64,000 bases of DNA from Candidatus Nomurabacteria bacterium (GTDB lineage: Bacteria > Patescibacteriota > Minisyncoccia > Phycocordibacterales > UBA918). The stretch is from positions 75,388 to 139,387 of the forward strand of contig CP060229.1 of assembly GCA_023898585.1 (NCBI GenBank). Direction: 5' to 3'. Shown in pieces: positions 2,042 to 19,555 of this stretch. Positions within the stretch are counted from its first letter, which is position 1; every line of letters begins with the position of its first letter. The notes below the pieces were generated by a model. That model was not told where the DNA came from. It saw only the letters and a program-made list of their open reading frames with translations, and searched no databases. Made by a program: the position numbers and the translations under genes.

Positions 2042-4201
2042 ATGAAGGAAGAGCGACAATCACAAATCCCGGAGGTTTTTTTATCTCCCTACGACCCGGC
2101 GAAACACGAAAAACGTATCTATCAGCTTTGGGAAGAATCCGGATTTTTTAATCCTGATAATTTGCCAGGTGAGCGTAGCGAACCCTTCACAATCGTAATG
2201 CCTCCACCAAACGCCAACGGTTCTCTCCACGCGGGTCATGGCCTCGTTTTCGCCATCGAAGACACCATGATGCGCTTTGAACGTATGCGAGGCAAGAAAG
2301 CACTCTGGTTACCGGGTGCTGACCATGCTGGTTTTGAAACTCAAGTAGTCTACGAAAAGAAACTCCAGAAAGAAGGCCGTTCTCGTTTTCAAATGGAACC
2401 AAAGGATCTCTACAATGAGATCATGGATTTTACCATGTCAAACAAATCGATCATGGAAAATCAGATTCGTGAACTGGGCGCATCCTGCGATTGGTCTCGT
2501 TCACTTTTTACTCTTGACGATTCCGTAATCAAAATTGTTTACGACACTTTCAAAAAACTGGAGGAAGACGGACTTTTATATCGCGGAGCTCGCACTGTAA
2601 ACTGGTGCCCCAAACATCAAACTTCACTTTCCAATCTCGAAGTCAACTACAATGAAAAGACTGATCCTTTTTATTACTTCCAATACGGACCGTTTGTAAT
2701 CGGTACAGCAAGACCAGAGACAAAATTCGGCGACAAGTATGTAGTTATGCACCCGGATGATGCACGTTACGAAGATTTCCAGCATGGACAAAAAATTGAT
2801 CTCGAATGGATAAATGGACCGATTGTCGCGACCGTCATCAAAGACCAAGCGGGTGATCCAGAAATGGGCTCAGGTGTGATGACAATCACTCCTTGGCACT
2901 CCAACATTGATTTTGAAATCGCTAAACGACACGATTTAGACTACGAACAAATAATTGATTGGCGAGGTAAATTACTTCCTATCGCGGGAGAATTTGACGG
3001 AATGAACATTGAAGAAGCCCGCCAAAAAATTGTCGATAAGTTGGACAAAAAAGGATTGTTGGTAAAAATTGATGATAAGTACGACCATTCAGTTCCGTGT
3101 TGCTACAAATGCGACAAAGAAATTGAACCACAAATTCGCGAGCAATGGTTTGTTAAAATGCGACCTTTGGCGGATAAAGCCATAGAAGCGGTAGACTCAG
3201 GTAATGTCAAGTTCGTGACCAATCGCGACGAAAGGGTTTTTAGAGATTGGATGAGCAAAATTGATGATTGGAACATATCCAGACAAGTAGTTTGGGGTAT
3301 CCCAATTCCCGCCAAGGTATGTAGCGAATGCGGTCATGGCATGGTGGACTTGGAAAGCAAAATCACTAAGTGTGAAAAGTGCTCCGGTAAAGTCGAAAAA
3401 GATCCCGACACGTTCGATACATGGTTCTCATCAGGTCAGTGGCCTCTGGCAACGACCCACTATCCTGATGGAGACGATTTCAAACAACACTACCCTACTT
3501 CAGTCATGGAAACCGGCAAGGACATCATTTTTTTCTGGGTATCAAGAATGATCATGCTTGGTCTTTACAGAACCGGAAGAGTACCGTTTAAAAAAGTTTA
3601 TCTACACGGCATGGTACGTGATAAACACGGAAAGAAGATGAGTAAGAGTAAAGGCAACGTTATAGCACCAAGCGAAATTCAAGAACGTTTTGGAACCGAC
3701 GCCCTACGCATGGGCTTATTGGTTAACACCGCGCCGGGCAGTGACATGAATCTAGACCCTGATAAGGTGAATGCTTATAAAAAGTTCGCCAACAAAATCT
3801 GGAATATCACCCGTTTTGTACTGGAAAACACTTCCGACATGCCCGAGCAAGCAACCTTGACGGCCGATGATGCAGAAAATATCAAAGCTAAACTAAAAAC
3901 AACAATAGCGGAAATAACCAAGGACATGGAAAAAGACCGTTTCGACCTGGCATCGGAAAAACTTTACCATTTTGTTTGGAGTTATTTTGCGAGTGAGTTA
4001 CTGGAAGAGTCAAAACCTTTGCTTCAATCCGGTGATGCGTCAGTCAGAATATCGAGACAAAAACTTCTCAGAGAATACCTGATAACATCAATTAAACTGC
4101 TTCATCCTTTTATGCCGTTTGTTACTGAGACAATCTGGCAAGAACTGCCGGATGATATGAAAGATCACGCTGTCTTGATGGTAGCGCAGTGGCCCAAGTA
4201 A
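2042..4201 (+). CDS. valS: valine--tRNA ligase (class I aaRS), compact form lacking C-terminal coiled coil
   Basis: PPPNANGSLHAGHG (HIGH region, ValRS-like PPPN), KMSKSKGN (KMSKS), CP1 editing motif TARPETKFGDKYVVMHPDDARY. Confidence 0.8.
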   Translation: MKEERQSQIPEVFLSPYDPAKHEKRIYQLWEESGFFNPDNLPGERSEPFTIVMPPPNANGSLHAGHGLVFAIEDTMMRFERMRGKKALWLPGADHAGFETQVVYEKKLQKEGRSRFQMEPKDLYNEIMDFTMSNKSIMENQIRELGASCDWSRSLFTLDDSVIKIVYDTFKKLEEDGLLYRGARTVNWCPKHQTSLSNLEVNYNEKTDPFYYFQYGPFVIGTARPETKFGDKYVVMHPDDARYEDFQHGQKIDLEWINGPIVATVIKDQAGDPEMGSGVMTITPWHSNIDFEIAKRHDLDYEQIIDWRGKLLPIAGEFDGMNIEEARQKIVDKLDKKGLLVKIDDKYDHSVPCCYKCDKEIEPQIREQWFVKMRPLADKAIEAVDSGNVKFVTNRDERVFRDWMSKIDDWNISRQVVWGIPIPAKVCSECGHGMVDLESKITKCEKCSGKVEKDPDTFDTWFSSGQWPLATTHYPDGDDFKQHYPTSVMETGKDIIFFWVSRMIMLGLYRTGRVPFKKVYLHGMVRDKHGKKMSKSKGNVIAPSEIQERFGTDALRMGLLVNTAPGSDMNLDPDKVNAYKKFANKIWNITRFVLENTSDMPEQATLTADDAENIKAKLKTTIAEITKDMEKDRFDLASEKLYHFVWSYFASELLEESKPLLQSGDASVRISRQKLLREYLITSIKLLHPFMPFVTETIWQELPDDMKDHAVLMVAQWPK

Positions 4202-4339
4202 AAACACCAACCTAACTATACTCGTGACGGCCCGATAAGACACGATGGTCAGACCAGAAAAGAATGGTTCTCTCTCAACAGTCCCCACTTAACCGAACCT
4301 TTACTATTGTGGACACTATGTTTTGGTACAATAGTCTGA

Positions 4340-5044
4340 GTGGAATCAACCTATTTCGCCATAGCTTTTTTATCCGGACTGGTACCTGCCCTATTCTGGG
4401 TCTGGTTTTGGTTGCGAGAAGACAAAAAACGTCCCGAGCCTTATTTTTTAATAACGATATCATTTATCGCCGGCATGGCTGTAGTACCTATCGCCCTACC
4501 TTTACAACAACAGGCTTTGAATCTGTACACCGGAGATAACGTGATGTTGGTCTGGGTAATTATTGAAGAGTTATTGAAATACGCGGTTGCTTTGGTGTTA
4601 ATTTTCTGGAATAAGGAAGTAGACGAACCTATCGATATGGTCATTTACATGATCATGATCGCTCTTGGCTTTGCTGCGTTGGAAAACGCCTTATTTATAT
4701 TCAATCCACTCGTAATGGGTGATTACCTCAATTCCGTACTGACCGGCGGATTCAGATTCCTAGGAGCCAGCCTTCTTCATGTTTTAGCCTCAGGCACGGT
4801 CGGAGTTTGTCTGGCCTTGGCCTACTACAAACCAAAGCTTACCCAAGTCCTCATTGGCACGCTGGGGTTGTTCATAGCCATTGTGTTGCATGCCTTATTT
4901 AACTTTTTTATAATGGATGCAAATGGAGAGACTATTATAACCGTCTTCCTTTTTGTCTGGATGGGCATCATCCTTCTGTTTCTTCTTTTTGAAAAAATAA
5001 AACTGCTCGAACGTAGCCATAATCATCAACCAAAAATATCATGA
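4340..5044 (+). CDS. PrsW-family intramembrane glutamic protease (CPBP-like)
   Basis: multi-TM ORF with EELLKY (EExxK), FAALENALF (FxxxE) and HALFNF motifs typical of PrsW/PF13367. Confidence 0.6.
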   Translation: MESTYFAIAFLSGLVPALFWVWFWLREDKKRPEPYFLITISFIAGMAVVPIALPLQQQALNLYTGDNVMLVWVIIEELLKYAVALVLIFWNKEVDEPIDMVIYMIMIALGFAALENALFIFNPLVMGDYLNSVLTGGFRFLGASLLHVLASGTVGVCLALAYYKPKLTQVLIGTLGLFIAIVLHALFNFFIMDANGETIITVFLFVWMGIILLFLLFEKIKLLERSHNHQPKIS

Positions 5045-5553
5045 AAAAACCATCATTTTTAGAGAGACTTACCGGCAATCAAGCGGATGAGTATGATCGC
5101 GTTTTAGACGAAGACCATGAATTTGGCGAGGATGACGATTTGGCCGTCGAGGATGATAACCAGCAAGAAGATGATTGGCGAAACGAGGAGAGCGACGGCA
5201 ACGACCAGCAAGACGGGGAGTTACCGGTCGATATGTACCAGACCGACGAAATGATAGTAATTCGAGCCCTCGTTGCCGGGGTTAGTCCGAATGATCTGGA
5301 AATCTCAATTACTAGAGATATGGTGACCATGAGAGGAGTGCGTGAAGAGTACCAAGAAGCACCGGATGATGGATATTTTCATCGGGAATTGTTCTGGGGT
5401 AGTTTTTCCCGCACTCTCCTTTTGCCGGAAGAAGTAGCTATTGATGAAGCGGAAGCACAAGAGAAACACGGATTACTTGAGATCAAACTTCCCAAATTAG
5501 ACAAACACCGCTCGACCCAACTTAAAGTCAGAACAAATGCCGGACATAAGTAG
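5041..5553 (+). CDS. Hsp20/alpha-crystallin family small heat-shock protein with acidic N-terminal extension
   Basis: alpha-crystallin domain pattern (VDMYQTDEMIVIRALVAGV...ISITRDMVTMRG...LEIKLPK); Asp/Glu-rich N-terminus. Confidence 0.75.
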   Translation: MKKPSFLERLTGNQADEYDRVLDEDHEFGEDDDLAVEDDNQQEDDWRNEESDGNDQQDGELPVDMYQTDEMIVIRALVAGVSPNDLEISITRDMVTMRGVREEYQEAPDDGYFHRELFWGSFSRTLLLPEEVAIDEAEAQEKHGLLEIKLPKLDKHRSTQLKVRTNAGHK

Positions 5554-5612
5554 TGGTAAATCCTCGATGTAAACTGGTCGCTTTTTTTGGATATAGTCAA
5601 GTCAAATTGAAT

Positions 5613-5651
5613 AGAACACCAAGATCCTTTCGGCCTTGGTGTTCTTTTGTT
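5613..5651 (+). terminator. rho-independent terminator after Hsp20 gene
   Basis: 11-bp stem AGAACACCAAG/CTTGGTGTTCT followed by TTTTGTT. Confidence 0.6.
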
Positions 5652-5663
5652 ATAACCAAACTT

Positions 5664-5981
5664 TTACATGTAGGTAGCATGTGCTTCAATAATTTGAAGA
5701 ATAATCATCTTGCATTGTTGAATTGAAATAGACAGGTTTATAGAATCGCTCCCAAGATGACTATCATCCGACTGAAGAGTGAGTAATTTCTTTATGTCGC
5801 TGAACTTCTCCTCGCGAATGCTTGCTCCTTTGGGAATCCCGCTCAGCAGAGGGTCAAAGACAGCGTCACATAATGCGACAAACTTCTCTTCCTGCCCGCG
5901 AACACGTCCGCTGTCTTTCCACAAAAGACGCGTTTCTTTCAATTCCTGTAATGCTTGACGAACGTTGATTGTAGTACTCAT
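5664..5981 (-). CDS. hypothetical protein
   Basis: 105-aa ORF, no recognisable motif. Confidence 0.35.
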   Translation of the reverse strand: MSTTINVRQALQELKETRLLWKDSGRVRGQEEKFVALCDAVFDPLLSGIPKGASIREEKFSDIKKLLTLQSDDSHLGSDSINLSISIQQCKMIILQIIEAHATYM

Positions 5982-6199
5982 CTTTTCTCTAACCTCACTT
6001 TATACTTGTGAATTCAAACCTATCTACATTATAAGTTTGGTTCAAAAACAAACAATTTTCAAATCTGTGGTCTGGTTGTCTAAAATATACGGATAAAAAG
6101 ACCTGCTAGTCTTTATTTGGGCGTGATTCGAAACAAATTAAACATAAACAAAGCGCCGATAACAGATTTCGGCGCTTAGTAGCAGTCTCATTCCAACCC

Positions 6200-6385
6200 T
6201 TACTCTTCGAGTCCTACTTCAATGTATGTTGATACCACCTGACCCGAAGCTTGTCGGATGTCTACCAATTGAATAGCGGTATGATCTTCAAGCTGAACAG
6301 GTTCATCTCTAAACCCCAAAACTGTCCCGACAACTTCAGGAGTTGGTAAGCCATTCTTATTGTATGTCTTGTGAATTTTCTCCAT
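6200..6385 (-). CDS. hypothetical protein
   Basis: 61-aa ORF, no recognisable motif. Confidence 0.3.
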   Translation of the reverse strand: MEKIHKTYNKNGLPTPEVVGTVLGFRDEPVQLEDHTAIQLVDIRQASGQVVSTYIEVGLEE

Positions 6386-6804
6386 TTTATTATCCTCTAT
6401 TTATCACAGTCAAAAAGAACACCGAGGAAATCAGAAATGATCCCGCCCACTATAATTTAAACATTTTATGAACAGGAAAGAAAACAGATTTAGACAATTG
6501 AATTAGGTACCGACAAGCAGTGAGTTCAGTTACTCTTTCCTTCCCACATCAAAATTCAGGGAAATTAGAAGTTTTTCATTGTAAAGTAGAAGTCCTTGAG
6601 GTGTGCTTGGGAGCAGTTCGGTCAATCTTGGTTATGGTTTACAGGCATATTGGCGCAGGTTACTAAGTGTTTTCTCTAGCTTCGCTAGTTGCGAGCACTA
6701 AGTACCTACTGCCCCAGCTCGCCTATTTTTGTGCTAGGAGAGGCACAAAAATTATGGCTCCGCTTCACAAAGACGTACGCAAGCAAAGCAGTTTGCCTGC
6801 TAAC

Positions 6805-6838
6805 AGAAAAAACACCAGACACGTGTCTGGTGTTTTTT
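6805..6838. terminator. bidirectional hairpin terminator (3' of tRNA-Phe)
   Basis: perfect palindrome AACACCAGACACGTGTCTGGTGTT flanked by A6 and T6 runs. Confidence 0.6.
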
Positions 6839-6852
6839 CTGTTACGTCTTTG

Positions 6853-6925
6853 TGCTTGGGAGCAGGCTCGAACTGCTGACCCTTCGCTCTTCAGGCGAAT
6901 GCTCTACCAACTGAGCTACCCAAGC
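6853..6925 (-). tRNA. tRNA-Phe(GAA)
   Basis: reverse complement GCTTGGGTAGCTCAGTTGGTAGAGC...CTGAAGA...GGTCAGCAGTTCGAGCCTGCTCCCAAGCA; cloverleaf with GAA anticodon; CCA not encoded. Confidence 0.85.
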
Positions 6926-7024
6926 ATGTTTTCCCGACCTATAATTTAAATAAGTAGTGGTTGCTATTCTACCTTTTTCTCGGTTTTTTTCAAATTTTTC
7001 GCTTTTATTCTTATCCAGCTATTA

Positions 7025-7321
7025 TTAATTGGAACCACCTTTAGCCGCTTCGTAAAATTGCTTCCAGCCGGGTATTTCTTGTAAGCCCTGCTGAAAAGTC
7101 TCAAAAGAAGACCCAAAAGATTCGAAATAAGGTTCGATTACGTAGTAGTAGAGTATGAAAGGAACACCGATTAAGAATAACGACCAGGCCACTCTTACCC
7201 AAAAAGACCAAATCGAACGTCTATTAAGAGTTCTGAGGAGTTGATTGTTTTCTGTCAACAATCGTTGGTTTTCTAGTACTAAATCACGCAATAACTGATT
7301 CTCGTCTTTTTCGGGCGACAT
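7025..7321 (-). CDS. hypothetical small membrane/coiled-coil protein
   Basis: ORF 7025..7411 trimmed to internal ATG (MSPEKDENQLL...); C-terminal TM helix. Confidence 0.35.
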   Translation of the reverse strand: MSPEKDENQLLRDLVLENQRLLTENNQLLRTLNRRSIWSFWVRVAWSLFLIGVPFILYYYVIEPYFESFGSSFETFQQGLQEIPGWKQFYEAAKGGSN

Positions 7322-7462
7322 AATTAAAGTATAGCAGACTGTGCGTGAACAAAATTGAAAATATGCTAGAGTATGTTGACTTTTTAAAGTAATGAACATT
7401 TTGTAAGGCAATCAAACAAATTTTATATGTAACCCTAAAGACATGTTTAACAACAATACCTT

Positions 7463-7534
7463 GCCCTCGTAGTTCAATGGATAGAACAGCACACTCCTAA
7501 CGTGCTAATGTAGGTTCGATTCCTACCGAGGGCA
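7463..7534 (+). tRNA. tRNA-Arg(CCT)
   Basis: GCCCTCGTAGTTCAATGGATAGAAC...CTCCTAA...GTAGGTTCGATTCCTACCGAGGGCA; perfect 7-bp acceptor; anticodon CCT (A31:C39 mismatch in anticodon stem). Confidence 0.8.
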
Positions 7535-9048
7535 CAAAACAAGACTTCTGACGAAGTCAACGAGCGCGGAGAAGCCGCGCGAGAAAAAGAAAAAGGAGAA
7601 ATACGCCGTCGCGTAGCGACGAAATGGCTGGGCGAGGGCACGGAAAAGTGGGCGGTTTTGTCACGAACCACATGGTTCGTTCCGATTTTTTGGACGAAGT
7701 CGGCAATTTCGGAGAAATTGTCAGACGAGGACAAAAAAGCGGCTTGTTTCGTATCCAAAACCCACTCCCGCAAGGGTTCGACCCAAGTATTTCCCCGACG
7801 TTCACAATCTTTCTTCTTCTCGTTCAAAGTGGCGAGAGAGCGCATAGTAGTGTCTTTCTTTTTTAGATAAATCTCTTTCGGTATGTCTCCGTCCAAATAC
7901 GCAGATACTAGCTTCTCCATGCGCTCCTCGTCCGCTTTGATTTTGGCAGAAAGATTTTGAACATCACTTTGCGATGAGTTAGTTTCTTCACGCTCCCATT
8001 CGTCAATTTTCGCCAACATCCAGTCAGCGTACTCATCGCAAAGTGAAATTGTTTGAAGCCGATCCTTAATTTGTGCAACGAGGTCTTTCTCTTGTACATA
8101 CCCTTGCGAGCAAGCGCCGTGCTTCTTGGTACAGCGATAGTAGCGATACACTCCACCATTGCCCTTAGCGTGTTGCGCCGTGAACATGCCGCCGCACTCA
8201 CCACAACGGAACAGTCCTAAAAACGGAAAATCATGGCGGTTTCTTCGCATCGGCGCACGCGCTTTGCTCGCAAGAACTTTTTGCACGGCTTCAAACAATG
8301 TCGGGGAAATAATTGGTTCAAATGTGCCGTCAAACCATTCTTCATTGTGACGAACAAATCCGAGATAAGCACGATTGCTCAAAAGGTGTTTGATGGCACA
8401 TTTGGCAAGTGGCTTTCCTTTCGAACTGGTAACGCCTAAATCCACCAAAAACTGCGACAAAGAAACCAGTCCATGTGTACCTTTCGCATATTCCTCAAAA
8501 GCGTGCTGCACAATCTTGGCGTTCACCTCATGCGGTTCTATCTGCCGAGTACGCGGATTGTTCACATACCCAAATGGCGCTTTTGTGAGCCACTCACCTC
8601 GTCGCAGTTTTTGGCGGATGCCTCTTTTCACATTTTGTACCAGATTGTCTGAGTAGTATTTACTTTGCCCAAAAGCCACTTGCAACATAAAGAGCCCTTG
8701 TGGAGTGGGTTCAAACCAAAATGTCGGAAAGCGCAAAGACGCGATTCTCTCGGTATCTACGGCATATATGACGCGCCCACCGTCAATCGAATTGCGCGCC
8801 AATCTATCGGGATGCCAACCAAGAATGCCCTGCGCTTCTCCCGATTCAATACGCGTCATCATCTCATTAAAAATCGGACGACCGGGTGTCTTTGCGCTTT
8901 TCGACTCTTGAAACTCCGCTAGGATTTCAAGATTTTCTTTACGCGCAAATTCACGTAGTTCAAACAACTGGGCTTCAATACTCATGACTTGCTTATCGTC
9001 ATCTTCTGTTGATTTGCGAGCGTATAGAAAATATTTTGGTTTGATCAT
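7474..9048 (-). CDS. large serine recombinase (resolvase/invertase catalytic domain + recombinase domain + zinc ribbon)
   Basis: MIKPKYFLYARKSTEDDDKQ... with catalytic Ser in YARKST, Cys cluster CGECGG...C, ~524 aa; start at ATG 9048 (the ORF upstream extension lies in repeat sequence); 3' end overlaps tRNA-Arg on the opposite strand. Confidence 0.85.
   Translation of the reverse strand: MIKPKYFLYARKSTEDDDKQVMSIEAQLFELREFARKENLEILAEFQESKSAKTPGRPIFNEMMTRIESGEAQGILGWHPDRLARNSIDGGRVIYAVDTERIASLRFPTFWFEPTPQGLFMLQVAFGQSKYYSDNLVQNVKRGIRQKLRRGEWLTKAPFGYVNNPRTRQIEPHEVNAKIVQHAFEEYAKGTHGLVSLSQFLVDLGVTSSKGKPLAKCAIKHLLSNRAYLGFVRHNEEWFDGTFEPIISPTLFEAVQKVLASKARAPMRRNRHDFPFLGLFRCGECGGMFTAQHAKGNGGVYRYYRCTKKHGACSQGYVQEKDLVAQIKDRLQTISLCDEYADWMLAKIDEWEREETNSSQSDVQNLSAKIKADEERMEKLVSAYLDGDIPKEIYLKKKDTTMRSLATLNEKKKDCERRGNTWVEPLREWVLDTKQAAFLSSSDNFSEIADFVQKIGTNHVVRDKTAHFSVPSPSHFVATRRRISPFSFSRAASPRSLTSSEVLFCALGRNRTYISTLGVCCSIH
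7597..7721 (+). repeat. core+Y repeat (direct copy of 13838..13945; core GGCACGGAAAAGTGGGCGGTTTTGT at 7633..7657)
   Basis: about 120 bp near-identical to 13838..13945; the core is present inverted at 9095..9119. Confidence 0.8.
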
Positions 9049-9059: not shown

Positions 9060-9600
9060 AATTATTTTTGGATACGAAACAAGAAACAAAACCGCCCACT
9101 TTTCCGTGCCTCACCCTGTCCGATTTCGTCTCACAGCGACGGGCTGTATTTGGTTTTGTTTCCTCGCGCCGCTCGGTCGCTATTAGTTGACCTTCGGACG
9201 AAGAAGTCTTGTTTTGTGCAGAAATACTGACCTTTGCTCGAACCCATTTCGAGAACCGATGAACATACCATGATCGTTCACGCGCCGAGCGCGTGGTGAT
9301 GCGGACGCGAAGCGTACGCATTGGGGAATACATGTTTGGGCGCGCTCCGTCCTCTCACTCCGTCGTCGCTAAGCGTGCCGTACGGCCACGCATTTCTTCG
9401 CCTCCGTTCGTGCGGCTCCTCGCAAAACCCCATTTTCCTCCGCCGAAAGGCCAAAATATTGAAAAGGAAATGGTTGGTTTTGCTTGCGTAGGGCTGCTTT
9501 ATCAACATGTGCTGTATTATATAACATTGGATAGTAAACAAAAGTAAGTATAATTAAAACTTGTTAATGTTATGACGACTGCAATAGAAAAGCTGGCTAA
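9060..9600 (-). repeat. core+X inverted-repeat arm (reverse complement matches 13381..13900)
   Basis: blockwise reverse-complement alignment of 9061..9600 to 13381..13900 with several small indels; also inner IR 9064..9090 matching 7738..7762. Confidence 0.8.
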
Positions 9601-9785
9601 GAATATTAAGATTATTAGGATTAAAACATGTCACAGGGTGACATCTGTAGAGATGCAGCAAAGGCAGGACCGTTCTTTCATACATACAACATTGAGGCTG
9701 GCAAATCAAAAATAACGCTTTGAAAACATTGAACGTATCGCTAAGGCTTTCGGTGTTACTTGTGATGAGCTTTTTGAATAAACGC

Positions 9786-10777
9786 ATGTCTCAAGAGGGA
9801 GGAAAAAAGAAAATACTGTCACATCATAATGTTTGCGGGATGTGGGGGTCTCGATACACTGTTTGAGTGGTTTTGAATCCCTTGAAAAAAAGTACGAGGA
9901 AAAGAAATTTTTATATAGATAATGCTAAAACGTTGATCCATCACTTGTTTAACGTTTAAATTGTACTTCAACCACGAGATAGAATGCGGTAGGATAGTCC
10001 ATGATATAGATGGTACACATAACTCTATTTTGTCGCTCATTCCAAAGTCGACGGATGTAGTTTGGGTGGCTTCCCCTGCCAAGAATTTAGTCAAACAGGC
10101 AAAAGACGGAGAAGGCTTCAACAGCGGAGAAAGGAGTTCTATACGCAGTATGGCGGAAGTCATAAAGAGAACAAAACCGATGGTGAATTTATAGACAGAA
10201 AACGTTAAATGATCTGCTCACTGATTTTGATGGTGGTACTGCCATCGATATTATTAAGGAAGATTTTGCTTCGGCGGTTATCATGTAAATCACAAACTGC
10301 TGGTTTGCGGATTTGATTATGGTGCCTCAAACACGAGAACAAGTGATAATTGTTGGAACAAAAAAGGTGTTTTGCCGAGATTTGAAGATAGTGATTACCA
10401 AAGCCAACACATGCCAATAAGCATGTTTCTGTAGGAGAAGCGCTGTCGATCTAGAAAGCGTCGAGGAAGGTGGCTTTTCCAATCATTATTGGTCGAAGGC
10501 AAAAAAGAATAAGGGGCAAGGAAATAATGTTATTCACAAAGACAAACCGGGGCCAACAATGAGAACAGAACATCATGGAAACATAGAATTTCACTGGAAC
10601 GGAAAACGTAGATTATCAGCGCGTGAAGCTGCTCGTATACAATCATTTCCTGATGATATGGAATTTCTACCATCTACCTCTCAAGCATATAAACAAATAG
10701 GAAATGCCGTACCCCCTATTTTAGGGTGGCACGTGGCAAAATCCGTAGAATCATTCCTAAACAGAAACTTGAAATAA
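9786..10777 (+). pseudogene. dcm: DNA (cytosine-5)-methyltransferase, frameshifted (Dcm-like)
   Basis: C5-MTase motifs in three different frames: motif I MFAGCGGLDTLFEWF (then TGA), motif IV GGFPCQEFS, motif VIII PQTRERVIIVG, motif X/C-terminus RRLSAREAARIQSFPDD...QIGNAVPP (ORF 10559..10777). Confidence 0.75.
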
Positions 10778-10778
10778 C

Positions 10779-11771
10779 ATGATATACGCAGAAAAAGAAA
10801 ATCCGAGCGAAGAAGTTTTTCTAGAGTTACTGGAAAATTCAAAAAATGGTTTGATTGAAAAATTGCAAAGCAATGGACCTTTGCCGAACTCAACGCAATT
10901 CGAAGTTTTAGTGTGTGAGGAAATGCAAGCAAAAGCCATTGGTACTGAATTCGAGGGAACAATAAGGCAAACAGGGGTTGCTGCTTTTCCAGATATTGTA
11001 GCCAATGGTTATTTTGGCGTAGAAGTAAAAATGACCATAAAAGATCACTGGCGCTCTACCGGCAACAGTGTTCTGGAAAGTTTACGAGAAGAAGATGTTG
11101 AGAAGATTTATATTATGTTTGGTAAACTGGGCGGTACTCCCGATGTGAAATACCGTTTATACCAAGAATGTTTGCCGTCTGTTAGCGTGACCCATTCTCC
11201 TCGTTATCAAATAGACATGAATTTAGCTGTTGGAAAATCTATTTTTGATAAGATGGGTATTTCTTACGATGAATTGAGAACAAGTGGAGATACCATCCAA
11301 CAAATTAAGACGTATTATCGAAGTCAGCTCCAAGAAGGTGAAGGTTTGTGGTGGATTGACGAGGAATCAGAAGCACCTTCACCAGTGATTAAACAATTTC
11401 GAACTTTGGAAACAGAGGATAAAGAAAGATTTAAAATTGATTGCATGATCTTATTTCCTGAATTGTTTAGAAATAGAGCAAATTACGATCGCGCCGCCGC
11501 ATATCTTACCACCGAGTTTGGTGCTGTCTCAGCAAGCCTGAGGGATGAGTTTAGTGCTGGTGGTAGACAAGAAGTAATGGTTGCGAGAGAAAAAAGAAGT
11601 GTGTCGCAAGTACTCTCGCAACTTCGAGGATATGCCCCACAAATCACAGCTCGAATCCAAGAGCTTGACGAGGGTCTTTTAAAATTTTACTGGAAAGTCT
11701 CGTCCATAGAAGAAGACAGGATTCAACAATGGAAAGGTTTGATTGACGAAGTGCGCGGTCGGTCTTGGTGA
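10779..11771 (+). CDS. putative type II restriction endonuclease (PD-(D/E)xK fold)
   Basis: 330-aa ORF starting 1 nt after the dcm stop; FPDIVANGYFGVEVK fits PD-x(n)-ExK nuclease motif; R-M operon context. Confidence 0.5.
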   Translation: MIYAEKENPSEEVFLELLENSKNGLIEKLQSNGPLPNSTQFEVLVCEEMQAKAIGTEFEGTIRQTGVAAFPDIVANGYFGVEVKMTIKDHWRSTGNSVLESLREEDVEKIYIMFGKLGGTPDVKYRLYQECLPSVSVTHSPRYQIDMNLAVGKSIFDKMGISYDELRTSGDTIQQIKTYYRSQLQEGEGLWWIDEESEAPSPVIKQFRTLETEDKERFKIDCMILFPELFRNRANYDRAAAYLTTEFGAVSASLRDEFSAGGRQEVMVAREKRSVSQVLSQLRGYAPQITARIQELDEGLLKFYWKVSSIEEDRIQQWKGLIDEVRGRSW

Positions 11772-11865
11772 TGATCTTCCCTCAGAAGTTTTTGAATCAG
11801 GTCATGAAGAAGCAGAACTAGCAACAACCTAAATCGTAATTTTTCAAAACAAAGCTAAAATTCGG

Positions 11866-12244
11866 ATACGTTAACGGTTCGTGAGCGGTCAAAGCGCATG
11901 TCGCTAATACGTTCAAAATCAACAAAGTTTGAGAGGATTTTATTGAAGACTTTAAAAAGAACACGTAAAGCATTTACCTCCAAACGATACGAGCGTTTTT
12001 GAGTAAGCCAGACGTGGTGTTTGGCAAACACAAGGTCTGTGTATTTCTCGATAATGTGGGCTTAATTTTGGCATGGCTGGCAATATCGAGATGTAAAGCA
12101 TTTACTTATCAAAGATGATTTCTGGAGAGAGAAAATTGAAAGAAATAGGAAAACGTGACAAAAAGTAACACGTAAGCTTCGTGCCGAGGGGTGGATTGTG
12201 TTTCGTTTTTGGGAGCATAAGCTTAAAAAGGCATCATCAGGCTA
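11866..12244 (+). pseudogene. vsr: very-short-patch repair endonuclease Vsr, frameshifted remnant
   Basis: MSLIRSKSTKFERILLKTLKRT, KPDVVFGKHKVCVFLDN and C-terminal LRAEGWIVFRFWEHKL in different frames with intervening stops. Confidence 0.6.
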
Positions 12245-12371
12245 ATTGCATAGAAAAAGTTTTGGATAGTTTAAAATAAAGTTATGAAAGTCACTGAACT
12301 AAAAGAAAACAGAACTTCCCAGAGAAAAGATGGAAAAGTATGGAGCAAAACGACTCAAAATTTTGAGTTGA

Positions 12372-12900
12372 TTGCGATTGTTTTGGGTTCTGGAATCAAG
12401 GGTTGTAACGATGCTGGAATTAGCAAGAAAAATTGAAAAACTCATTATTCAAAAATCAGCAAACAACGTTACCTTTGAAGATTTGCGGAAGATTCGCGGG
12501 TTGGGAAAAACAAAAGCTATACAAGTTCTTGCCATAATCTCTCTCGTCGACCGCTTAGGAAGCGGACAAAATTTCAAACATATTATCCATTAAAGACGTT
12601 TGAATAATGTTCTGATTTTCGATCGTCAAAAAAAAGAACACGTCGTTGCTTTTTATTTTGATACTCAACAAAAACTAATAGAGGCGAATAATTTCCGTTG
12701 GGACGCTCGACACATCTCTTGCGCACCCGGGTGAGTTTTGAACCTGCCTTGCAACCTCTGCCGCGGGTGTGGTCTTAGCACACAACCACCCCTCAGGAAG
12801 TGTTGATCCATCGGATGATGACATTGCCATTACGAAACGCATGGCGGACGCAGGCGATTTACTAGGCATTACACTTATCGATCATTATCGTCTCCGATAA
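12372..12900 (+). pseudogene. radC: RadC-like JAB/MPN domain protein, frameshifted
   Basis: N-terminal HhH region TFEDLRKIRGLGKTKAIQVLAI (ORF 12372..12593); JAMM motif VVLAHNHPSGSVDPSDDDIAITKR in another frame at about 12770..12900. Confidence 0.65.
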
Positions 12901-13380
12901 AGAATTTCGAGCAATAGACTAAATCAAGGTTGGAAAATAACTCTATTTAAAGTAAAATCGGGAAAGAGCGGTGGTTTAGGAGATGTGTTCACTGTCATTC
13001 GCGCTTACGCCAGATAAAGGTGGTCACTTATCTCCTTTATCAGAACATTTAACTTTAAGCTTACAATGCCTAGAACCAAATGTCGTCCGACTCGGACTAC
13101 TGGTAAGCCAGGACCAAAACGGTCACGGTCAAACCGCATAAACGCTCTACACCGAAACCACTGAAGAAGTGCTAGTAGGAAGATTCGGACGGCGACGTAA
13201 GTCGTCGTTCGTTTCGTTAGGGTAAACCTCGCACAAAGCGAACATCGGACAGTACCGAGCAAGCCATGCGAACGAATGTGAGGCGGCCATGCGAGGTAGT
13301 GGCGGAGCGTTGTGAGCGTTGGTTAATATTACCCACCGGCTTGAACGACGTGCCGCCTTGGGCGCCACAAGGACGACGAA

Positions 13381-13945
13381 AGGCGAAGTGAAAAGCTTTC
13401 TATTGCAGTCGTCATAACATTTCCACAGTTTTAATTATACTTACTATTGTTTTACTATCCAATGTTATATAATACAACACATGTTGATAACTCACCCCTG
13501 CACCCACCAACCATTTCCTTTTCAATATTTTGGCCTTCGGCGGAGGGGTTTGGGGAGGAGCCGCATTAAAAAGGCAAAGGAAATGGTGGTGGGATGCACG
13601 CGCGCAGCGATAGCGGAGCGCGTCCCAAGGCGCATGTATTCCCCAATGCGTACGCTTCGCGTTCGCATCACCACGCGCTCAGCGCGGCACGATCATTGTC
13701 CTTTCTCGAAATGGGTTCGAGCAAAGGTCAGTATTTCTGCACATTCAGAAACTTCTCGTTCCGTGAGGTCGCTACGCGACAAAGCGGCGCGGGAGCCAAA
13801 ACTAAAACAGCCGTTCGAGAGTCTCCCAGACTCCCTCACCTCCGCGACGAAATCAGACGGAGCGGGCACGGCGAGGCGGGCGGTTTTGTCACGAACCGTA
13901 TGGTTCGTTCAGACTTTTTTGACGAAGGAGGCAATTTCGGAAAAT
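13381..13945 (+). repeat. X+core+Y composite repeat (copy of the alternative recombinase junction)
   Basis: 13381..13900 equals reverse complement of 9060..9600; 13838..13945 equals 7597..7721; ORFs 13481..14011 and 13594..13950 are translation artefacts of this repeat. Confidence 0.85.
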
Positions 13946-14031
13946 ACTAGCAACGGGAGTCGATTCTTACCCTGTTTACTCAATACCATCATGCATACCG
14001 TAGAAATGTGACGGCTGATTATATTCTGAGT

Positions 14032-14385
14032 TTAGACGTCAGTTGTTGTTTGAATCTTATTCAACCTACTATGCGTATAAGTGAATACATCCACCAACAC
14101 CTTAATGTACAATACGTATACAATAAACTGAATTCCATTGTATACCACTTGTCCAGCTTCAAGTGGCAAGAGCACGTAGATAAAAGGTGCCGCAACATAT
14201 TCACTGAAGGGGAAAAAGCCAATAACGTTGTAATTAAAAAGATTGCCCAGATATGCCGGATTTGCTTGTAATAACGGCGGGAGTATCAGCATCGCAACAC
14301 TGTAGACAACCATCCCCCACAGCGCCCATTTTAGATATTCTTTTGCTATCGTCATGACGGTATCATAACACACTTCCGACCCCAA
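14032..14385 (-). CDS. hypothetical membrane protein
   Basis: 117-aa ORF with hydrophobic segments. Confidence 0.3.
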   Translation of the reverse strand: MGSEVCYDTVMTIAKEYLKWALWGMVVYSVAMLILPPLLQANPAYLGNLFNYNVIGFFPFSEYVAAPFIYVLLPLEAGQVVYNGIQFIVYVLYIKVLVDVFTYTHSRLNKIQTTTDV

Positions 14386-14484
14386 AACGCCAATTCAACA
14401 ACTCCTGTAGTAACGCTTTTACTGTAGTGAGTTTCGTTTTTACCAAGATTGAATTGTGGCTTTATTATTTGCCCCTGGTGTACT

Positions 14485-14973
14485 CTAAACTTCCGCAAAC
14501 ACAATCATATAATTGTGTCCGAATTTTTCGACACACCGAGGGCAATATGCGTAGTGTACGTAATAATCTTTAGCCTTTTTACCTTGCTTATCTAGAAATG
14601 CACCCATCACTTTAAGATGCTTAGGCACCGAATTGTATGGACCCTCAAAGACTTTTGCTATGAATTCTCCTGATAGACTTGTGTTTTCCGCACCTGGAAC
14701 TTCTTTCGTCACGGAATAAAATATCTCAGACTTGAACAAAGAGGGATCATGAAACAAAACTAGAGCATCACTCATGTCAGGCATGTTGGCACCGGCTTGT
14801 CCAGCCAAATCACACATTGATTTCATTTTTCTTCCGATGGTTGGCGGAAAAGGAATGTGGAAAAATGTAGGGACAGATTCTTTGACAAAAAGTTTTTTGT
14901 CCCATTGAAAAGTTTTTTCTTCCCATTTCGAAGGATGGAACTCGGGACAACAAGTTGTGTTGTTATTATCCAT
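14485..14973 (-). CDS. hypothetical protein
   Basis: 162-aa ORF, Cys-containing C-terminus (YCPRCVEKFGH); no confident family. Confidence 0.4.
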   Translation of the reverse strand: MDNNNTTCCPEFHPSKWEEKTFQWDKKLFVKESVPTFFHIPFPPTIGRKMKSMCDLAGQAGANMPDMSDALVLFHDPSLFKSEIFYSVTKEVPGAENTSLSGEFIAKVFEGPYNSVPKHLKVMGAFLDKQGKKAKDYYVHYAYCPRCVEKFGHNYMIVFAEV

Positions 14974-15083
14974 AATAATTATGATTTAAATTATTGGAGA
15001 CAAGAAGTTGAGACACACAAAAAGTCGGCGAAAAGAGCTTCCGGATTTACTTTAGAATAACTTCCCAGTCACTCTAGCCTATG

Positions 15084-15365
15084 CTACAGCTTTAAAAGCT
15101 CACTCAGTTTTGACTCATCAAAACCGATTACCACATCTTCACCAATTCTTATAACCGGTACACCCATTTGTCCGGTCAAGTCAATCATCTCCTGCCGTCT
15201 TTCAGCGTCGGAAGCAACGTCAAATTCTGTATAATTGACATTATTCTCCTTGAAGAAGGCTTTTGCCTCCTGGCAAAAATGACAAACTGGGGTGCTGTAG
15301 ATAAATACCTCAGAATCAGTTGCTTCTGGTGTTGTGTTTTCTTCATTTGTTCCTGGCGTATCCAT
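15084..15365 (-). CDS. glutaredoxin-like / NrdH-like redoxin
   Basis: CHFC active-site CxxC, thioredoxin-fold pattern (YSTPVCHFCQEAKAFF...GVPVIRIG). Confidence 0.7.
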   Translation of the reverse strand: MDTPGTNEENTTPEATDSEVFIYSTPVCHFCQEAKAFFKENNVNYTEFDVASDAERRQEMIDLTGQMGVPVIRIGEDVVIGFDESKLSELLKL

Positions 15366-15405
15366 AAAAATTTAATTAAATTTTAACATTCAGAAGTATA
15401 ACAGT

Positions 15406-15792
15406 TTATCGCCAAAACTGGTACCATTTGGCGTCTTCTTCCTTTGCGGTAGTGGTGGAAAGAGGCTGTATTTCTGACTCCTTGGGCTCATCTTCAACTA
15501 TTACGACTATTTGCTCGCCTTCGAGCGCCACGTCAAATTGTTTTCTCATTTCCGCTTCCAAACCTCTTTCGTTTGACAGATATTCGACCTGCTCTTCTAG
15601 TTGGTCTTTCCTTGTCTGTAGAGTTGCTACTTGCTGTTCGGCTTGAATTCTACGATCGGACATTTCCATCGCTATGTCGTAGCGAACATAAGTGCTCCAG
15701 CCAACCAGCAGAGTCAGAACCAGAATCACACCTTGTGTGAAGGGAGAATTAACAATAGAACGAAGTTTTCTTTTTTGGTGAAAATCAAACAT
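15406..15792 (-). CDS. septum formation initiator (FtsB/DivIC-like)
   Basis: N-terminal TM followed by coiled coil (ATLQTRKDQLEEQVEYLSNE). Confidence 0.5.
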   Translation of the reverse strand: MFDFHQKRKLRSIVNSPFTQGVILVLTLLVGWSTYVRYDIAMEMSDRRIQAEQQVATLQTRKDQLEEQVEYLSNERGLEAEMRKQFDVALEGEQIVVIVEDEPKESEIQPLSTTTAKEEDAKWYQFWR

Positions 15793-16032
15793 TCATCTTC
15801 ATTATACAATTTATTTACGGAGATTAAACAATCCGCTATAATAACGCGCATGAGTTTCTTATTTCACGAAAAAACAAAAAAGGCCATTAGGTGGGTGTGG
15901 GGAGTTATTGTCATTGTTATAATAATCAGTATGATTTTCGCCTATTCTGGCGGAGCAGGAATGTTTTAGAAAAAACTTAGATTCTAGAAGAATTTACTAA
16001 GTTTGTTGCGGTGAGCCGTTTGGAGTTAACAC

Positions 16033-17835
16033 CTATTCATTTTTCATCATTTTCATAAAGACTTCTTGTGGAATATGAACCCTCCCCCGAGCCAAGGCCT
16101 TGGCTTTTCCTTTTTTCTGCTTCTCGCGGAGTTTCATCTTTCGAGTAATATCTCCCCCGTAGAGATGAGCAGTAACGTCTTTTTTAAGAGCGCTTAGCTT
16201 CTTGGTAGAAATGATCTTCCCCATTACTTTAGCTTGAATCTTTACGATAAATTGTTGACGAGGTAAGGTGTTATAGAGTTTTTCTGTGACCGCCTTAGCT
16301 TCTATTTCTGCCCGGCCCATACCGATTACCCTAGAAAAAGCCGGCACAAGCTCCTCCGCCACTAACACTTCAAGCTTTGTAACAGAAGCCGGTCGCATCT
16401 CAGCGACTTCATAAGAAAGCGATGCATACCCGCTACTGGCATTTTTCAGTCGGTCAAAAAACCCTCTCATGAGTTCACGTAGCGGTATTTCAATAGTCAA
16501 TAGAGTTCTCCCGTCGCTGAACATTTCCGTATCAATGACACTGGACTCGTGTTCGTAAAGCAATGTCATGACGTTGCCCATATATTCACCAGGTAAAATT
16601 ATCTGACCCAAAACCCACGGTTCCCGGACGGTTACATTTTGCCCATGCTCCGGGAAGCGATTGGCGGCGTAGATTTCTTCCACTTGACCATCGGGCCACG
16701 TTATTTCGTAAGAAATCGAAGGAGCAGTAATAATTATATCTATGTTGAATTCTCGGCGTAGACGCTCAGTTATTATCTCCATGTGCAACATACCCAAAAA
16801 ACCACACCGAAAACCTCGACCGAGTACTCCAGAAGACTCTTCTTCGTAGGAAAGAGAAGAATCCGAAAGTTGAAGACGATCAAGAGCTTGGTGTAACTGA
16901 GTGAAATCATCTTGATTAGAAGGAAAAATAGATGACCAGACTACTGGTCGCGCTTCTTGGTAGCCCGACAAGGGTTCCGCTGTGGAGCGAACCGGCAACA
17001 ATGTATCCCCGACCCCCGCCACTCCCGGTTCCTTTATACCTGTCACAACATATCCGATCTCACCCGCTCCAAGACTGTCTACAGGTCTTTCGTCCGGAGT
17101 GACAATACCTACTTCAAGAGCGGTAAATGTCTTCTTACTAGCAGCGAATTTTAGGACATCGCCTTTTTTCACCTCGCCGTCAAACACTCTCATAAAAACA
17201 ATAATTCCCCGATGATTGGAATACTCAAAATCAAAAATCAACCCTCGATGGGAGTCTATTTTACTTGCCCGCGGTGGAGGAATTCTTTGCCGAATCGCCT
17301 CAAGCAAATCGAGTACTCCGAGACCCGTTTTACCGGACACTAGTAAAATATCCTCCCGTGAACAACCGAGCAGTTTGACAACCTCTTCACCAACTTCTTT
17401 TGGTCGAGAGTGAGGGACGTCGATTTTAGTTAGGACGGGAATAATAGTCAGTCCTAAGTCTTTTGCCATCTGCAAAGTGGTTAGAGTCTGAGCTTGCACA
17501 CCTTGAGTACTATCAACCAAAAGCAGAACTCCTTCGACGGCCTTTAACGCTCTCGACACTTCGTAAGAAAAATCAATATGTCCCGGCGTATCAATCAAAT
17601 TGAACTCATAATCAACACCACTTGACTGGTATATCATACGTACCGGTTGCATCTTGATGGTGATTCCGCGCTCCCTTTCCAGGTCCATTGAATCAAGCAC
17701 TTGTTCTTTCATTTTGCGAGCCTCTACGGTCTTTGTCACTTCCAACATCCGGTCGGCCAGAGTAGATTTGCCGTGATCAATGTGAGCAATAATACTGAAA
17801 TTTCTTATTTGCATAGATTTTATTGTAGTGGTCAC
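16033..17835 (-). CDS. lepA: elongation factor 4 (LepA)
   Basis: IRNFSIIAHIDHGKSTLADR G1 motif, DTPGHIDF, full-length GTPase 600 aa. Confidence 0.9.
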   Translation of the reverse strand: MTTTIKSMQIRNFSIIAHIDHGKSTLADRMLEVTKTVEARKMKEQVLDSMDLERERGITIKMQPVRMIYQSSGVDYEFNLIDTPGHIDFSYEVSRALKAVEGVLLLVDSTQGVQAQTLTTLQMAKDLGLTIIPVLTKIDVPHSRPKEVGEEVVKLLGCSREDILLVSGKTGLGVLDLLEAIRQRIPPPRASKIDSHRGLIFDFEYSNHRGIIVFMRVFDGEVKKGDVLKFAASKKTFTALEVGIVTPDERPVDSLGAGEIGYVVTGIKEPGVAGVGDTLLPVRSTAEPLSGYQEARPVVWSSIFPSNQDDFTQLHQALDRLQLSDSSLSYEEESSGVLGRGFRCGFLGMLHMEIITERLRREFNIDIIITAPSISYEITWPDGQVEEIYAANRFPEHGQNVTVREPWVLGQIILPGEYMGNVMTLLYEHESSVIDTEMFSDGRTLLTIEIPLRELMRGFFDRLKNASSGYASLSYEVAEMRPASVTKLEVLVAEELVPAFSRVIGMGRAEIEAKAVTEKLYNTLPRQQFIVKIQAKVMGKIISTKKLSALKKDVTAHLYGGDITRKMKLREKQKKGKAKALARGRVHIPQEVFMKMMKNE

Positions 17836-17882
17836 TACTCTACCCTACTCCAACGATAAAGACTAGCTTTTGGGGAAAATCG

Positions 17883-19547
17883 TTATTGCGGAGCGATCAC
17901 ATCTGTTTTTAAGATTCGTGATTGAAAAGAACGGTATATTTCTTTCAGTTCCGGGGAGTTACCGACGGCATATGTCAAAACAATAGCAACTATACCCATG
18001 ACACCGGCCGTTATCCCCTGGATCATTATTCCAACAAAAGTTTCTTGGTTTATTCCCCCCACCACAAAAACCAAAGTCACGTAGGCAGTGACCGCCCCAG
18101 CAATGGTCGCCACACCGGAATGTACAAAAAGTCTCGCCAGTGGACGAAGGTTTATGTTAAAGATTCTTTTTGATAAGACTATAAGTGCAATGAGTTGGAT
18201 ATATTGACCAAGCACAAAAGCTAAGGCCAGGACCAAGACTTCAGAACCCGCAACCCCAGTCAAGCGAAAAGTTTCATTCAAGAATGATTGTAGAGCGGTG
18301 TATTCCGTGTATAAAAACATAAAGCCCGTGGCTAGCGCGACGGAAATTACACCTCCGGCGAGAGCAACAAAAAAAGGAAGGACTGTGCGACCGCCAGCAT
18401 AAAAAGCTCTTATCAACAAAAGCAAAACGGCTTGCGCCAAAAGCGAAATAACAAAAATCGCCAACATAGCGGCCGTCAACCTGGTATCGCTCCAGTTAAA
18501 CTCCCCACTTCCAAGAAGCACGCGCACAATCTGAGCACGCAGAACAATAACCAAACCAATGATAGGAATTGACCAGAAAAATATGTGTCTCAAAGCGGTT
18601 AAGAGTTGTTTGTTGAAGCCCTGTAGGTCACTTTTAGCGTGTAAATAAGAAAGAGTCGGAAAAGCGGCAACAGAGTAACTCATGCCTATAATTACCAAAG
18701 GGACGGATTGCAAATTGAAAGCAAACTGAAAAACCGATACCGACCCAACCGACATCACGGAAGCCATGCCGATTAAAATAAGTAGCACAATTTGATTGAT
18801 TGATAATGTTAGCGCTCTTGGTACGGAGACCAGAAGAATGTTCTTTATTAATCCCCAATCAATTTTGGACGTCGTAAAGAAAGAATATTCGCTCTTTAGC
18901 ACAAACGGTAACTGAATTGCCAGATGTCCCACAGCTCCCAAAACCACCCCGACGACGAGACCGACGAGACCGACTGCAGGATAAAAGAAAGTAATCCCTA
19001 AAATGATTCCAACATTGTACAAAAGTGGGCTGAGGGCATACAGGATAAAACGATGGTTCATCTGTGTTACAACCCCGCACAAACTGGATAAACCCAGCAA
19101 AAACGGTTGGATAAGCAAGATACGCAACAACAGAATCAGACTCTCATACTCTTCCCCAAAACCGGGAAATATATGCAGAACATACCAAGGCGCTAAAAGC
19201 GCCAACAATCCGGCTACCAGCGTATACACCAACAAGAATAGCGAGAACATTTGCGACAAAACTTTCGCGCCACCGGCTGGGTTATTATCCTCAGCGTATC
19301 TGTTCACGAAAGGCAACAGCACATATATCGAAAGAACAGAAGCAAAAAGCACAAATAACAAATCTGGGATGCGAAAAGCGGCATAGTAAAGATCAAGTTC
19401 AATCCCCGCGCCAAAAGTGTGAGCGAGAAGCCTGTCTCTAACAATCGCTAAAATTTGTGATCCAAAAGCAAATAATGCGAGTATGTAAGCAGCCTGATGT
19501 AAACCACGCACCTCACGGTACACAAAGTTGAAAACTCGCTTAACCAT
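17883..19547 (-). CDS. murJ: lipid II flippase MurJ (MviN)
   Basis: 554-aa polytopic protein, N-terminal MurJ pattern (ILAIVRDRLLAHTFGAGIELDLYYAAFRIPDLLF). Confidence 0.8.
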   Translation of the reverse strand: MVKRVFNFVYREVRGLHQAAYILALFAFGSQILAIVRDRLLAHTFGAGIELDLYYAAFRIPDLLFVLFASVLSIYVLLPFVNRYAEDNNPAGGAKVLSQMFSLFLLVYTLVAGLLALLAPWYVLHIFPGFGEEYESLILLLRILLIQPFLLGLSSLCGVVTQMNHRFILYALSPLLYNVGIILGITFFYPAVGLVGLVVGVVLGAVGHLAIQLPFVLKSEYSFFTTSKIDWGLIKNILLVSVPRALTLSINQIVLLILIGMASVMSVGSVSVFQFAFNLQSVPLVIIGMSYSVAAFPTLSYLHAKSDLQGFNKQLLTALRHIFFWSIPIIGLVIVLRAQIVRVLLGSGEFNWSDTRLTAAMLAIFVISLLAQAVLLLLIRAFYAGGRTVLPFFVALAGGVISVALATGFMFLYTEYTALQSFLNETFRLTGVAGSEVLVLALAFVLGQYIQLIALIVLSKRIFNINLRPLARLFVHSGVATIAGAVTAYVTLVFVVGGINQETFVGIMIQGITAGVMGIVAIVLTYAVGNSPELKEIYRSFQSRILKTDVIAPQ

Positions 19548-19555
19548 AAGAAGTA

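Follow-up and report, generated by a model that had tools for sequence, protein, structure and literature searches.

The window examined here is a 64,000-nt stretch of a Candidatus Nomurabacteria metagenome-assembled genome (MAG), deposited as a single contig of 994,774 bp (CP060229.1). Between about 9110 and 13503, it holds a series of frameshifted genes, which a first-pass annotation made from the letters alone had read as a dcm-vsr pair in decay, with an apparently intact nuclease gene between its members. From comparison with related sequences, these frameshifts are best explained, with a probability of about 0.88, as an assembly or consensus artefact lying over an ordinary, intact operon. 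The "decay" is almost certainly an assembly error, because independent assemblies of the same locus hold the operon fully intact, and the decayed pair is, therefore, almost certainly not a real feature of the organism. The underlying operon would be an ordinary one of five genes, encoding a helix-turn-helix (HTH) regulator, a C5-cytosine methyltransferase, a PD-(D/E)XK endonuclease, the Vsr repair endonuclease, and a RadC-like protein. It would be carried on an island linked to a tRNA-Arg gene, adjoining a large serine recombinase gene, between inverted repeats of ~250 nt.

In the deposited sequence, the Dcm-like C5-cytosine methyltransferase gene (9786..10777, + strand; 329 aa when intact) is broken, and, as had been described at first, its motifs are scattered over three frames. 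They include FAGCGG at 9832-9849 (frame 1), GFPCQ at 10068-10082 (frame 0), ENV at 10198-10206 (frame 1), and RRLSAREAARIQSFPDD...GNAVPP at 10607-10717 (frame 2). Another motif had been reported as QTRERVIIVG; it is present at 10328-10357 (frame 2), but the window reads QTREQVIIVG there, the reported spelling being that of the intact homologue. The gene contains 35 frameshifting indels, all inside 9791-10447, plus 32 substitutions, and only its C-terminal 72 aa remain in one frame. The gene for the Vsr very-short-patch repair endonuclease (11771..12279, + strand) carries about 15 frameshifting indels, and it had rightly been seen as frameshifted, with MSLIRSKSTKFE at 11898-11933 (frame 0), KPDVVFGKH at 12005-12031 (frame 2), and GWIVFRFWEH at 12189-12218 (frame 0). 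The damage extends past dcm and vsr. The HTH_3 gene upstream, first of the operon (XRE/C-protein-like; 9572..9780, + strand; 14 frameshifting indels), and the RadC-like JAB-domain gene that ends it (12284..12925, + strand; 13 frameshifting indels; 214 aa when intact) are likewise split over three frames. The open reading frame (ORF) in the middle, at 10779..11771 (+ strand), is open over 330 aa, as first stated, and contains FPDIVANGYFGVEVK at 10986-11030. Its product is protein USN92289.1 of the deposited record (locus tag H6782_00510), so the frameshifts belong to the sequence as deposited and do not stem from later handling. In the same record, the valyl-tRNA synthetase gene of the window (2042-4198) encodes USN92283.1. 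Neither this synthetase nor the 330-aa product had an exact match in the contig index.

The intact operon can be read from L001, a 4011-nt short-read contig from run SRR15882951, in which all genes of a tight five-gene HTH-Dcm-REase-Vsr-RadC operon are intact. It encodes an HTH_3 protein of 68 aa (Pfam HTH_3, 1.9e-15), a Dcm of 329 aa, a nuclease of 347 aa, a Vsr (PF03852, 1.5e-14) whose gene overlaps the end of the nuclease gene, and a RadC of 214 aa (PF04002 at 2.6e-37, plus UPF0758_N). The Dcm encoded at 330-1316 of L001 aligns with positions 2-322 of the 324-position profile PF00145 (2.8e-69), its closest relatives in the PDB being M.HaeIII (2e-34) and M.HhaI. The start of the nuclease ORF one nucleotide past the methyltransferase stop, which had been noticed in the window, recurs in L001 and reflects the native operon layout. 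Another copy of the operon, on a contig of another MAG (L114), is also intact and lies again beside a serine recombinase gene and a tRNA-Arg gene. More distant relatives (L002-L005) also have the operon intact, and the methyltransferase gene precedes that of the nuclease in nearly all of 80 genome loci. The RadC gene (2811-3455 of L001) ends the operon, 4 nt past vsr, in the closest relatives (nuclease identity of at least 61%, RadC identity of 81-88%). More distant loci lack this gene or have it in another place.

Organism, allele, and genomic position all appear to be matched by indel-free sequence, given the following alignments. The same organism is present in SRR15882951, since contig L008 of that run is 100.000% identical to window 26068-36347 over 10,280 nt (0 mismatches, 0 gaps), and contig L106 matches window 13748-21949 at 99.94% with 0 gaps. 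As for the allele, the window holds the L001 base at 87 of the 94 sites separating L001 from L114, of which 91 are informative, so the allele beneath the noise would be essentially that of L001. The position is provided by contig L110, which carries the right flank of the window (13504-15631, 99.9%, 0 gaps) through the right repeat arm into the cassette end. There, L110 agrees with L001 at 99.84% with 0 gaps; over the same 550 nt, 10 gap openings are counted in the window. Indel-free, intact copies of the same allele at the same position thus stand in short-read assemblies, and the notion of a decayed dcm-vsr pair is not supported. The same holds for the paradox derived from it, that of a restriction enzyme normally lethal without its cognate methylase, as no orphan nuclease and no decay are left to explain. 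Of the four ways out that had been proposed, namely a dead nuclease, protection by another methylase, assembly errors, or slippage, assembly errors are favoured. A second Dcm-like gene was not found within the 64-kb window.

The spectrum of the differences points in the same direction. Compared with L001, window positions 9451-13397 (3947 nt) show 48 insertions and 45 deletions, for 93 indels in all, together with 64 substitutions, of which transitions and transversions (Ts:Tv) number 28:36. The indels are mostly of 1-2 nt, are balanced between insertions and deletions, and are not in excess at homopolymers. When the cassette diverges naturally, the profile is another one. L114 differs from L001, over 4011 nt, by 94 substitutions (Ts:Tv 75:19) with 0 gap openings, and, of the 19 changes located in the nuclease gene, 16 affect the third position of a codon. 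The other comparisons with L001 yielded 242 mismatches and 2 gap openings over 2309 nt for L005, 567 mismatches and 5 gap openings over 3745 nt for L002, and 1 mismatch and 0 gap openings over 629 nt for L110. Natural cassette divergence brings 0-5 gaps per 94-567 substitutions, an indel:substitution ratio of about 1:100, versus about 1.5:1 in the window (Fisher tests, p = 2.6e-26 to 1e-67); the corresponding Ts:Tv ratios are 3.9 and 0.78.

The noise is, moreover, confined. It starts at about 9110, upstream of the recombinase start and directly after a perfect repeat of 25 nt; from there on, the alignment to L114 opens 6-9 gaps per 100 nt instead of 0-2. It ends at 13504, where the right arm of the ~250-nt inverted repeat has its inner edge. 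Differences from L001 affect about 12.5% of positions in 9451-10050, about 6% in 10051-10450, and about 3% in 11753-13397. Approximately 34 kb of the window (1-7535, 13504-22942, and 24200-41540) are clean: set against independent assemblies, each alignment there opens 0-2 gaps. The right arm (13504..13763, with a lower-identity continuation to about 13889-13944) is clean as well: seven independent contigs (L105, L106, and L108-L112) match at 99.5-99.9% with 0-1 gaps, from their own start to 13504-13748. The left arm (9195..9478) is badly garbled in this assembly: aligned to the right arm of the window and to both arms in L114, it reaches no more than 76-80% identity and opens 13-34 gaps. Those three clean copies are mutually 94-100% identical without gaps. 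In a comparison of the window with itself, the two arms extend over 9195-9590 and 13397-13763.

At the right end of the cassette, 13394..13503 (- strand) forms a chimeric junction, in which the left end of the cassette (its promoter plus 25 nt from the start of the HTH gene) recurs, clean and inverted. Window 13533-13394 equals L001 1-141 at 99.3%, and the chimeric segment replaces 56-57 nt of different right-end sequence, which is present at this junction in L001, L110, L112, and L114. This duplicate would be either a repeat mis-join or the trace of an inverted orientation.

Amid the noise lies an error-free patch (10448..11752), with 0 indels and 3 transitions compared with L001. All three transitions lie in 10448-10636, and 10637-11752 shows no difference whatsoever. 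At the regional event rate, the probability of zero events in these 1116 nt is 5e-20. The patch spans the last 110 dcm codons and the first 325 nuclease codons. As it opens inside dcm and closes before the nuclease stop, it follows neither gene borders nor selection. Because it covers most of the nuclease gene, the nuclease ORF looks intact, while its neighbours are frameshifted. The ORF had indeed been called apparently intact, which proved wrong, as its 330 aa compare with 347-350 aa in homologues. Its residues 1-325 are 100% identical to P0001, the protein encoded on L001, and a 2-nt deletion at 11753 then swaps the conserved last 22 residues for RGRSW and a stop, with the loss of a C-terminal helix (PSEVFxSG). 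The garbled 3' end (11753..11822, + strand) also contains a 1-nt insertion at 11814, and the true gene would run to about 11822 (347 aa). In the lost end, S336, F339, and G342 are nearly invariant across 36 diverse homologues.

From the observed error spectrum, its confinement to this stretch, and the intact copies elsewhere, we infer a technical cause, which is likely a long-read bridge with partial short-read polishing. The region from about 9110 to 13503 would contain uncorrected single-molecule (long-read-type) consensus errors in the deposited MAG. One or a few error-prone long reads would have bridged a repeat-bounded element common to several strains, and short reads would have polished this bridge only in part, the 1.3-kb patch at 10448-11752 being fully corrected. 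Frameshift-rich regions in long-read or hybrid metagenome assemblies are a known class of artefact. The window resembles them, being dominated by indels at the error level of raw reads (about 12%), with split genes confined within accurate surroundings. It differs from typical cases in that the noise is limited to one repeat-bounded mobile element and includes a perfectly corrected 1.3-kb patch. The full polishing of such assemblies is difficult, according to a passage in PMC8518188.

Several points weigh against an artefact. It is deduced from independent assemblies rather than from read pile-ups, and the cause of a perfectly clean 1.3-kb patch amid noise is only conjectured. In addition, SRR15882951 holds more than one closely related strain (over 2.7 kb, a 1% difference separates contig L014 from the window), so L001 could, in principle, derive from a sister strain. 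Finally, part of the left-arm difference may be real, since ~20% with respect to the clean copies exceeds the noise elsewhere.

The alternative that fares best also considers the noise to be technical, but provoked by a real inversion of the cassette between the perfect ~250-nt repeats, driven by RecA or by the serine recombinase encoded next to it. Long reads of both orientations, merged into one consensus, would then result in a garbled interior and a chimeric right junction. Two features expected of a recombinase-driven invertible segment, flanking inverted repeats and an adjacent recombinase gene, are present: perfect inverted repeats of 251 nt (L114) and 247 nt (L115) flank cargo, the recombinase gene adjoins the cassette, and the repeat arms bound the noise. 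The clean copy of the left-type junction after the window's right arm is also what an inverted orientation would look like; it is, however, the only hint of one, as all the independent junction-crossing contigs (L110, L112, and L114) show one and the same orientation. Repeat-induced mis-polishing could equally yield a chimeric junction, and the noise is asymmetric about the centre of the segment, with the left arm itself garbled. An inversion behind the noise is on the unlikely side.

Genuine decay would mean that the operon accumulated many inactivating mutations, while the nuclease region was kept clean by selection or by recent gene conversion from an intact copy. The frameshifts do stand in the deposited record, several related strains coexist in the samples, and a 1.3-kb patch identical to the intact allele could be a conversion tract. 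Decay should, nevertheless, leave lesions in independent sequences of the strain or locus, and L001, L110, and L114 are mutually indel-free; L110 is so at the window's own flank. It should also follow the natural mutation spectrum, in which substitutions far exceed indels and transitions exceed transversions, and both ratios are overturned in the window. The lineage of the window is so close to L001 that a natural build-up of 93 indels is ruled out, an allele nearly identical to L001 having had no time to acquire them. The clean patch is, moreover, devoid of synonymous changes, and its borders are unrelated to selection on the nuclease. Decay, consequently, appears very improbable. Self-restriction followed by error-prone repair was also considered as a source of indels and rejected: the indels, which recur roughly every 28 nt once the clean patch is set aside, are far too dense to follow any recognition site, and they also occur in the non-coding spacer.

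Phase-variable methyltransferases exist in other bacteria, but the idea that phase-variable slippage or programmed ribosomal frameshifting yields the methyltransferase despite the frameshifts, and so keeps the nuclease safe, is excluded in practice, as nothing specific in the window sequence favours it, the 35 separate, scattered frameshifting indels of dcm (with its 32 substitutions) fall in mixed sequence and none in a repeat tract, no simple-sequence tract, let alone a single one, is found at the breaks, and the HTH, vsr, and radC genes and the non-coding spacer are hit alike.

With the artefact as the preferred reading, the nature of the genes beneath it can be considered. The first identification of dcm, vsr, and the nuclease was right: the C-terminal fragment of the methyltransferase still matches Pfam DNA_methylase at 2.7e-15, and the nuclease ORF matches the PADLOC REase_II model at 4.3e-49. 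Searches of Pfam, NCBIfam, and PDB sequences returned no family for the nuclease, which has more than 1000 homologues, mostly in bacteria of the Candidate Phyla Radiation (CPR). The proposed PD-x(n)-ExK signature is borne out, as P71, D72, E82, V83, and K84 (a PD-x9-EVK motif) are invariant across the 36 homologues. The AlphaFold2 model (predicted local distance difference test score, pLDDT, 84.5) includes a helix predicted at 335-346. Its top fold matches in the PDB are all PD-(D/E)XK enzymes (HincII, SwaI, EcoRV, and Hjc), although these matches are weak, with Foldseek E-values of 0.008-0.14 and TM-scores of 0.16-0.30 (query-normalised) or 0.21-0.42 (target-normalised). The genomic context is consistent, with a Dcm-type methylase directly upstream of the nuclease in nearly all of the 80 genome loci, and Vsr directly downstream in most of them, including most above about 45% identity. 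For example, on a Klebsiella plasmid, a 31%-identical homologue annotated as 'restriction endonuclease' lies beside a 'DNA cytosine methyltransferase' and a 'very short patch repair endonuclease'. Because of the PADLOC match, the invariant motif, the fold matches, the methylase and Vsr neighbours, and the Klebsiella annotation, the 330-aa ORF can be assigned, on computational grounds, to the nuclease of a Type II 5-methylcytosine (m5C) restriction-modification system. The likeness to HincII, EcoRV, and SwaI lies in the best-matching folds and the invariant PD-x9-EVK motif; only the catalytic core is comparable, the matches are weak, and the nuclease is not assigned to a family on this basis.

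The dcm-vsr/EcoRII and HpaII-type arrangements are Type IIP m5C systems with a linked vsr, the product of which repairs the T:G mismatches left by deamination of 5-methylcytosine. The intact allele of the window operon shares their layout, with the motif set of a Dcm-family methyltransferase, a PD-(D/E)XK nuclease directly downstream of it, and then a linked Vsr. It is unlike them in having additional RadC and upstream HTH genes, and in having a nuclease without a Pfam or NCBIfam family or any solved relative detectable by sequence. The underlying operon can, accordingly, be described as a predicted Type II m5C restriction-modification system with linked Vsr on a recombinase island. It is probably regulated by the small HTH protein. 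As in the C-protein operons of PvuII, BamHI, and AhdI, a 68-aa HTH_3 protein is encoded first, here 4 nt upstream of the methylase gene. Classical C proteins are usually encoded directly upstream of the nuclease gene, whereas this HTH gene precedes that of the methylase.

The island begins at 7535/7536, directly after a tRNA-Arg(CCT) gene (7463..7535, + strand; ARAGORN and Rfam), because contig L013 of a sister MAG is colinear with window 1-7535 (99.66%, 0 gaps) and then wholly divergent. Since unrelated sequence follows the same tRNA-Arg straight away in L013, the end of this gene appears to be a variable integration point. The large serine recombinase gene (7474..9048, - strand; 524 aa; Pfam Resolvase, Recombinase, and Zn_ribbon_recom) is an open ORF with a clean-looking sequence, which differs from its counterpart in L114 mostly by substitutions. 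Its homologues are 520-530 aa long and cover 100% of the window protein. The 3' end of the gene runs ~60 nt into the opposite-strand tRNA-Arg, both in the window (anticodon CCT) and in L114 (anticodon TCT), where the tRNA-Arg lies at 11529-11601 and the recombinase gene at 10001-11590. Among 5.8 billion proteins, the best match to the recombinase reached 88% identity. The recombinase itself is absent from this collection with any of three start codons, and no entry for it comes from its own NCBI record, although that record does contribute products of adjacent genes. The gene may have been annotated as a pseudogene in the record, or dropped owing to the tRNA overlap.

A further inverted repeat, perfect over 25 nt, encloses the recombinase gene; it is here named IR-B, the ~250-nt arms being IR-A. 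The outer copy of IR-B (7637..7661) sits within the recombinase 3' coding end, and its inner partner (9086..9110) lies just before the error-rich stretch. A third copy occurs at 13844-13944. The equivalents measure 130 nt at 100% identity in L114 (9909-10038/11403-11532) and 54 nt at 100% in L066 (4193-4246/5661-5714). Perfect inverted repeats, thus, bracket the recombinase in the three loci in which they were seen (the window, L114, and L066), and the repeat around the recombinase in L116 extends over 143 nt at 83% (2930-3072/4498-4640). The distance between the bracketing repeats is ~1.36-1.43 kb.

Two assembly irregularities were observed in public records related to other parts of the window. 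Beside a tRNA-Phe gene (6852-6925), positions 6801-6844 form a perfect palindrome of 44 nt, with two halves of 22 nt and no spacer. The MEGAHIT contig L012 from the European Nucleotide Archive (ENA) folds back exactly at this palindrome to give a mirror-image contig, which is a hairpin mis-assembly in that public record. In the sister MAG GCA_020428745.1 (contig L006, 13052-13739), an ABC-transporter gene is found in pieces of 75, 48, and 76 aa. The window equivalent (~39.1-39.8 kb) is one 236-aa ORF (39119-39829), and the split is likely an error in the GCA_020428745.1 assembly.

The IR-A arm is found beyond this cassette. It is conserved at 79-96% nucleotide identity in contigs L114-L119, with differing cargo. 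Besides the clean and garbled copies in the window, arm copies occur at 5472-5722/9674-9924 in L114 and at 1177-1423/7617-7863 in L115. In the latter contig, the two 247-nt copies are perfect and inverted, and surround 6.2 kb of other cargo, namely an HTH gene, a 365-aa ORF without a family, a different Dcm, a LexA/S24 repressor, and a patatin with a SMODS cyclase, resembling a cyclic-oligonucleotide-based antiphage signalling system (CBASS). The L115 cargo, thus, comprises a second, different restriction-modification pair besides the CBASS-like module. The sequences at both arm/cargo junctions are conserved, the arm being followed by GGGTGC... at one and by GGTCTGCTCGCCAC... at the other. In JGI metagenomes, the exact 28-nt core of the arm had no match, and a 23-nt core matched 5 loci; the 23-nt core had no match in viral contigs. 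A search of the arm against Rfam returned only a chance-level microRNA match. Inverted repeats as a general trait of this restriction-modification cassette were also considered and rejected, as they are absent around L002, L022, L024, L026, L027, and L030. Tentatively, the arms and the IR-B-bracketed recombinase might constitute an undescribed carrier of defence genes in CPR bacteria (Patescibacteria), whose cargo would be inverted or exchanged at the conserved junctions, and whose heterogeneity of orientation would have broken the assembly, although this proposal is rather doubtful.

These results constitute a warning about data quality. A 'complete', single-contig MAG in GenBank contains 4.4 kb of sequence in which the error rate climbs to about 12% and five genes of a defence operon come to look like pseudogenes, and the truncated nuclease USN92289.1 is now found in protein databases. 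Pseudogene counts, censuses of defence systems, and screens for 'orphan nucleases' that rely on such genomes will catch false signals of this kind, the risk being highest at repeat-bounded mobile elements common to co-occurring strains. Regarding the organism, the biological claim carries no weight, with neither an orphan restriction enzyme nor gene decay behind it. The inverted repeats of the island are the only feature worth following, as a modest lead on how defence genes may move in CPR bacteria.

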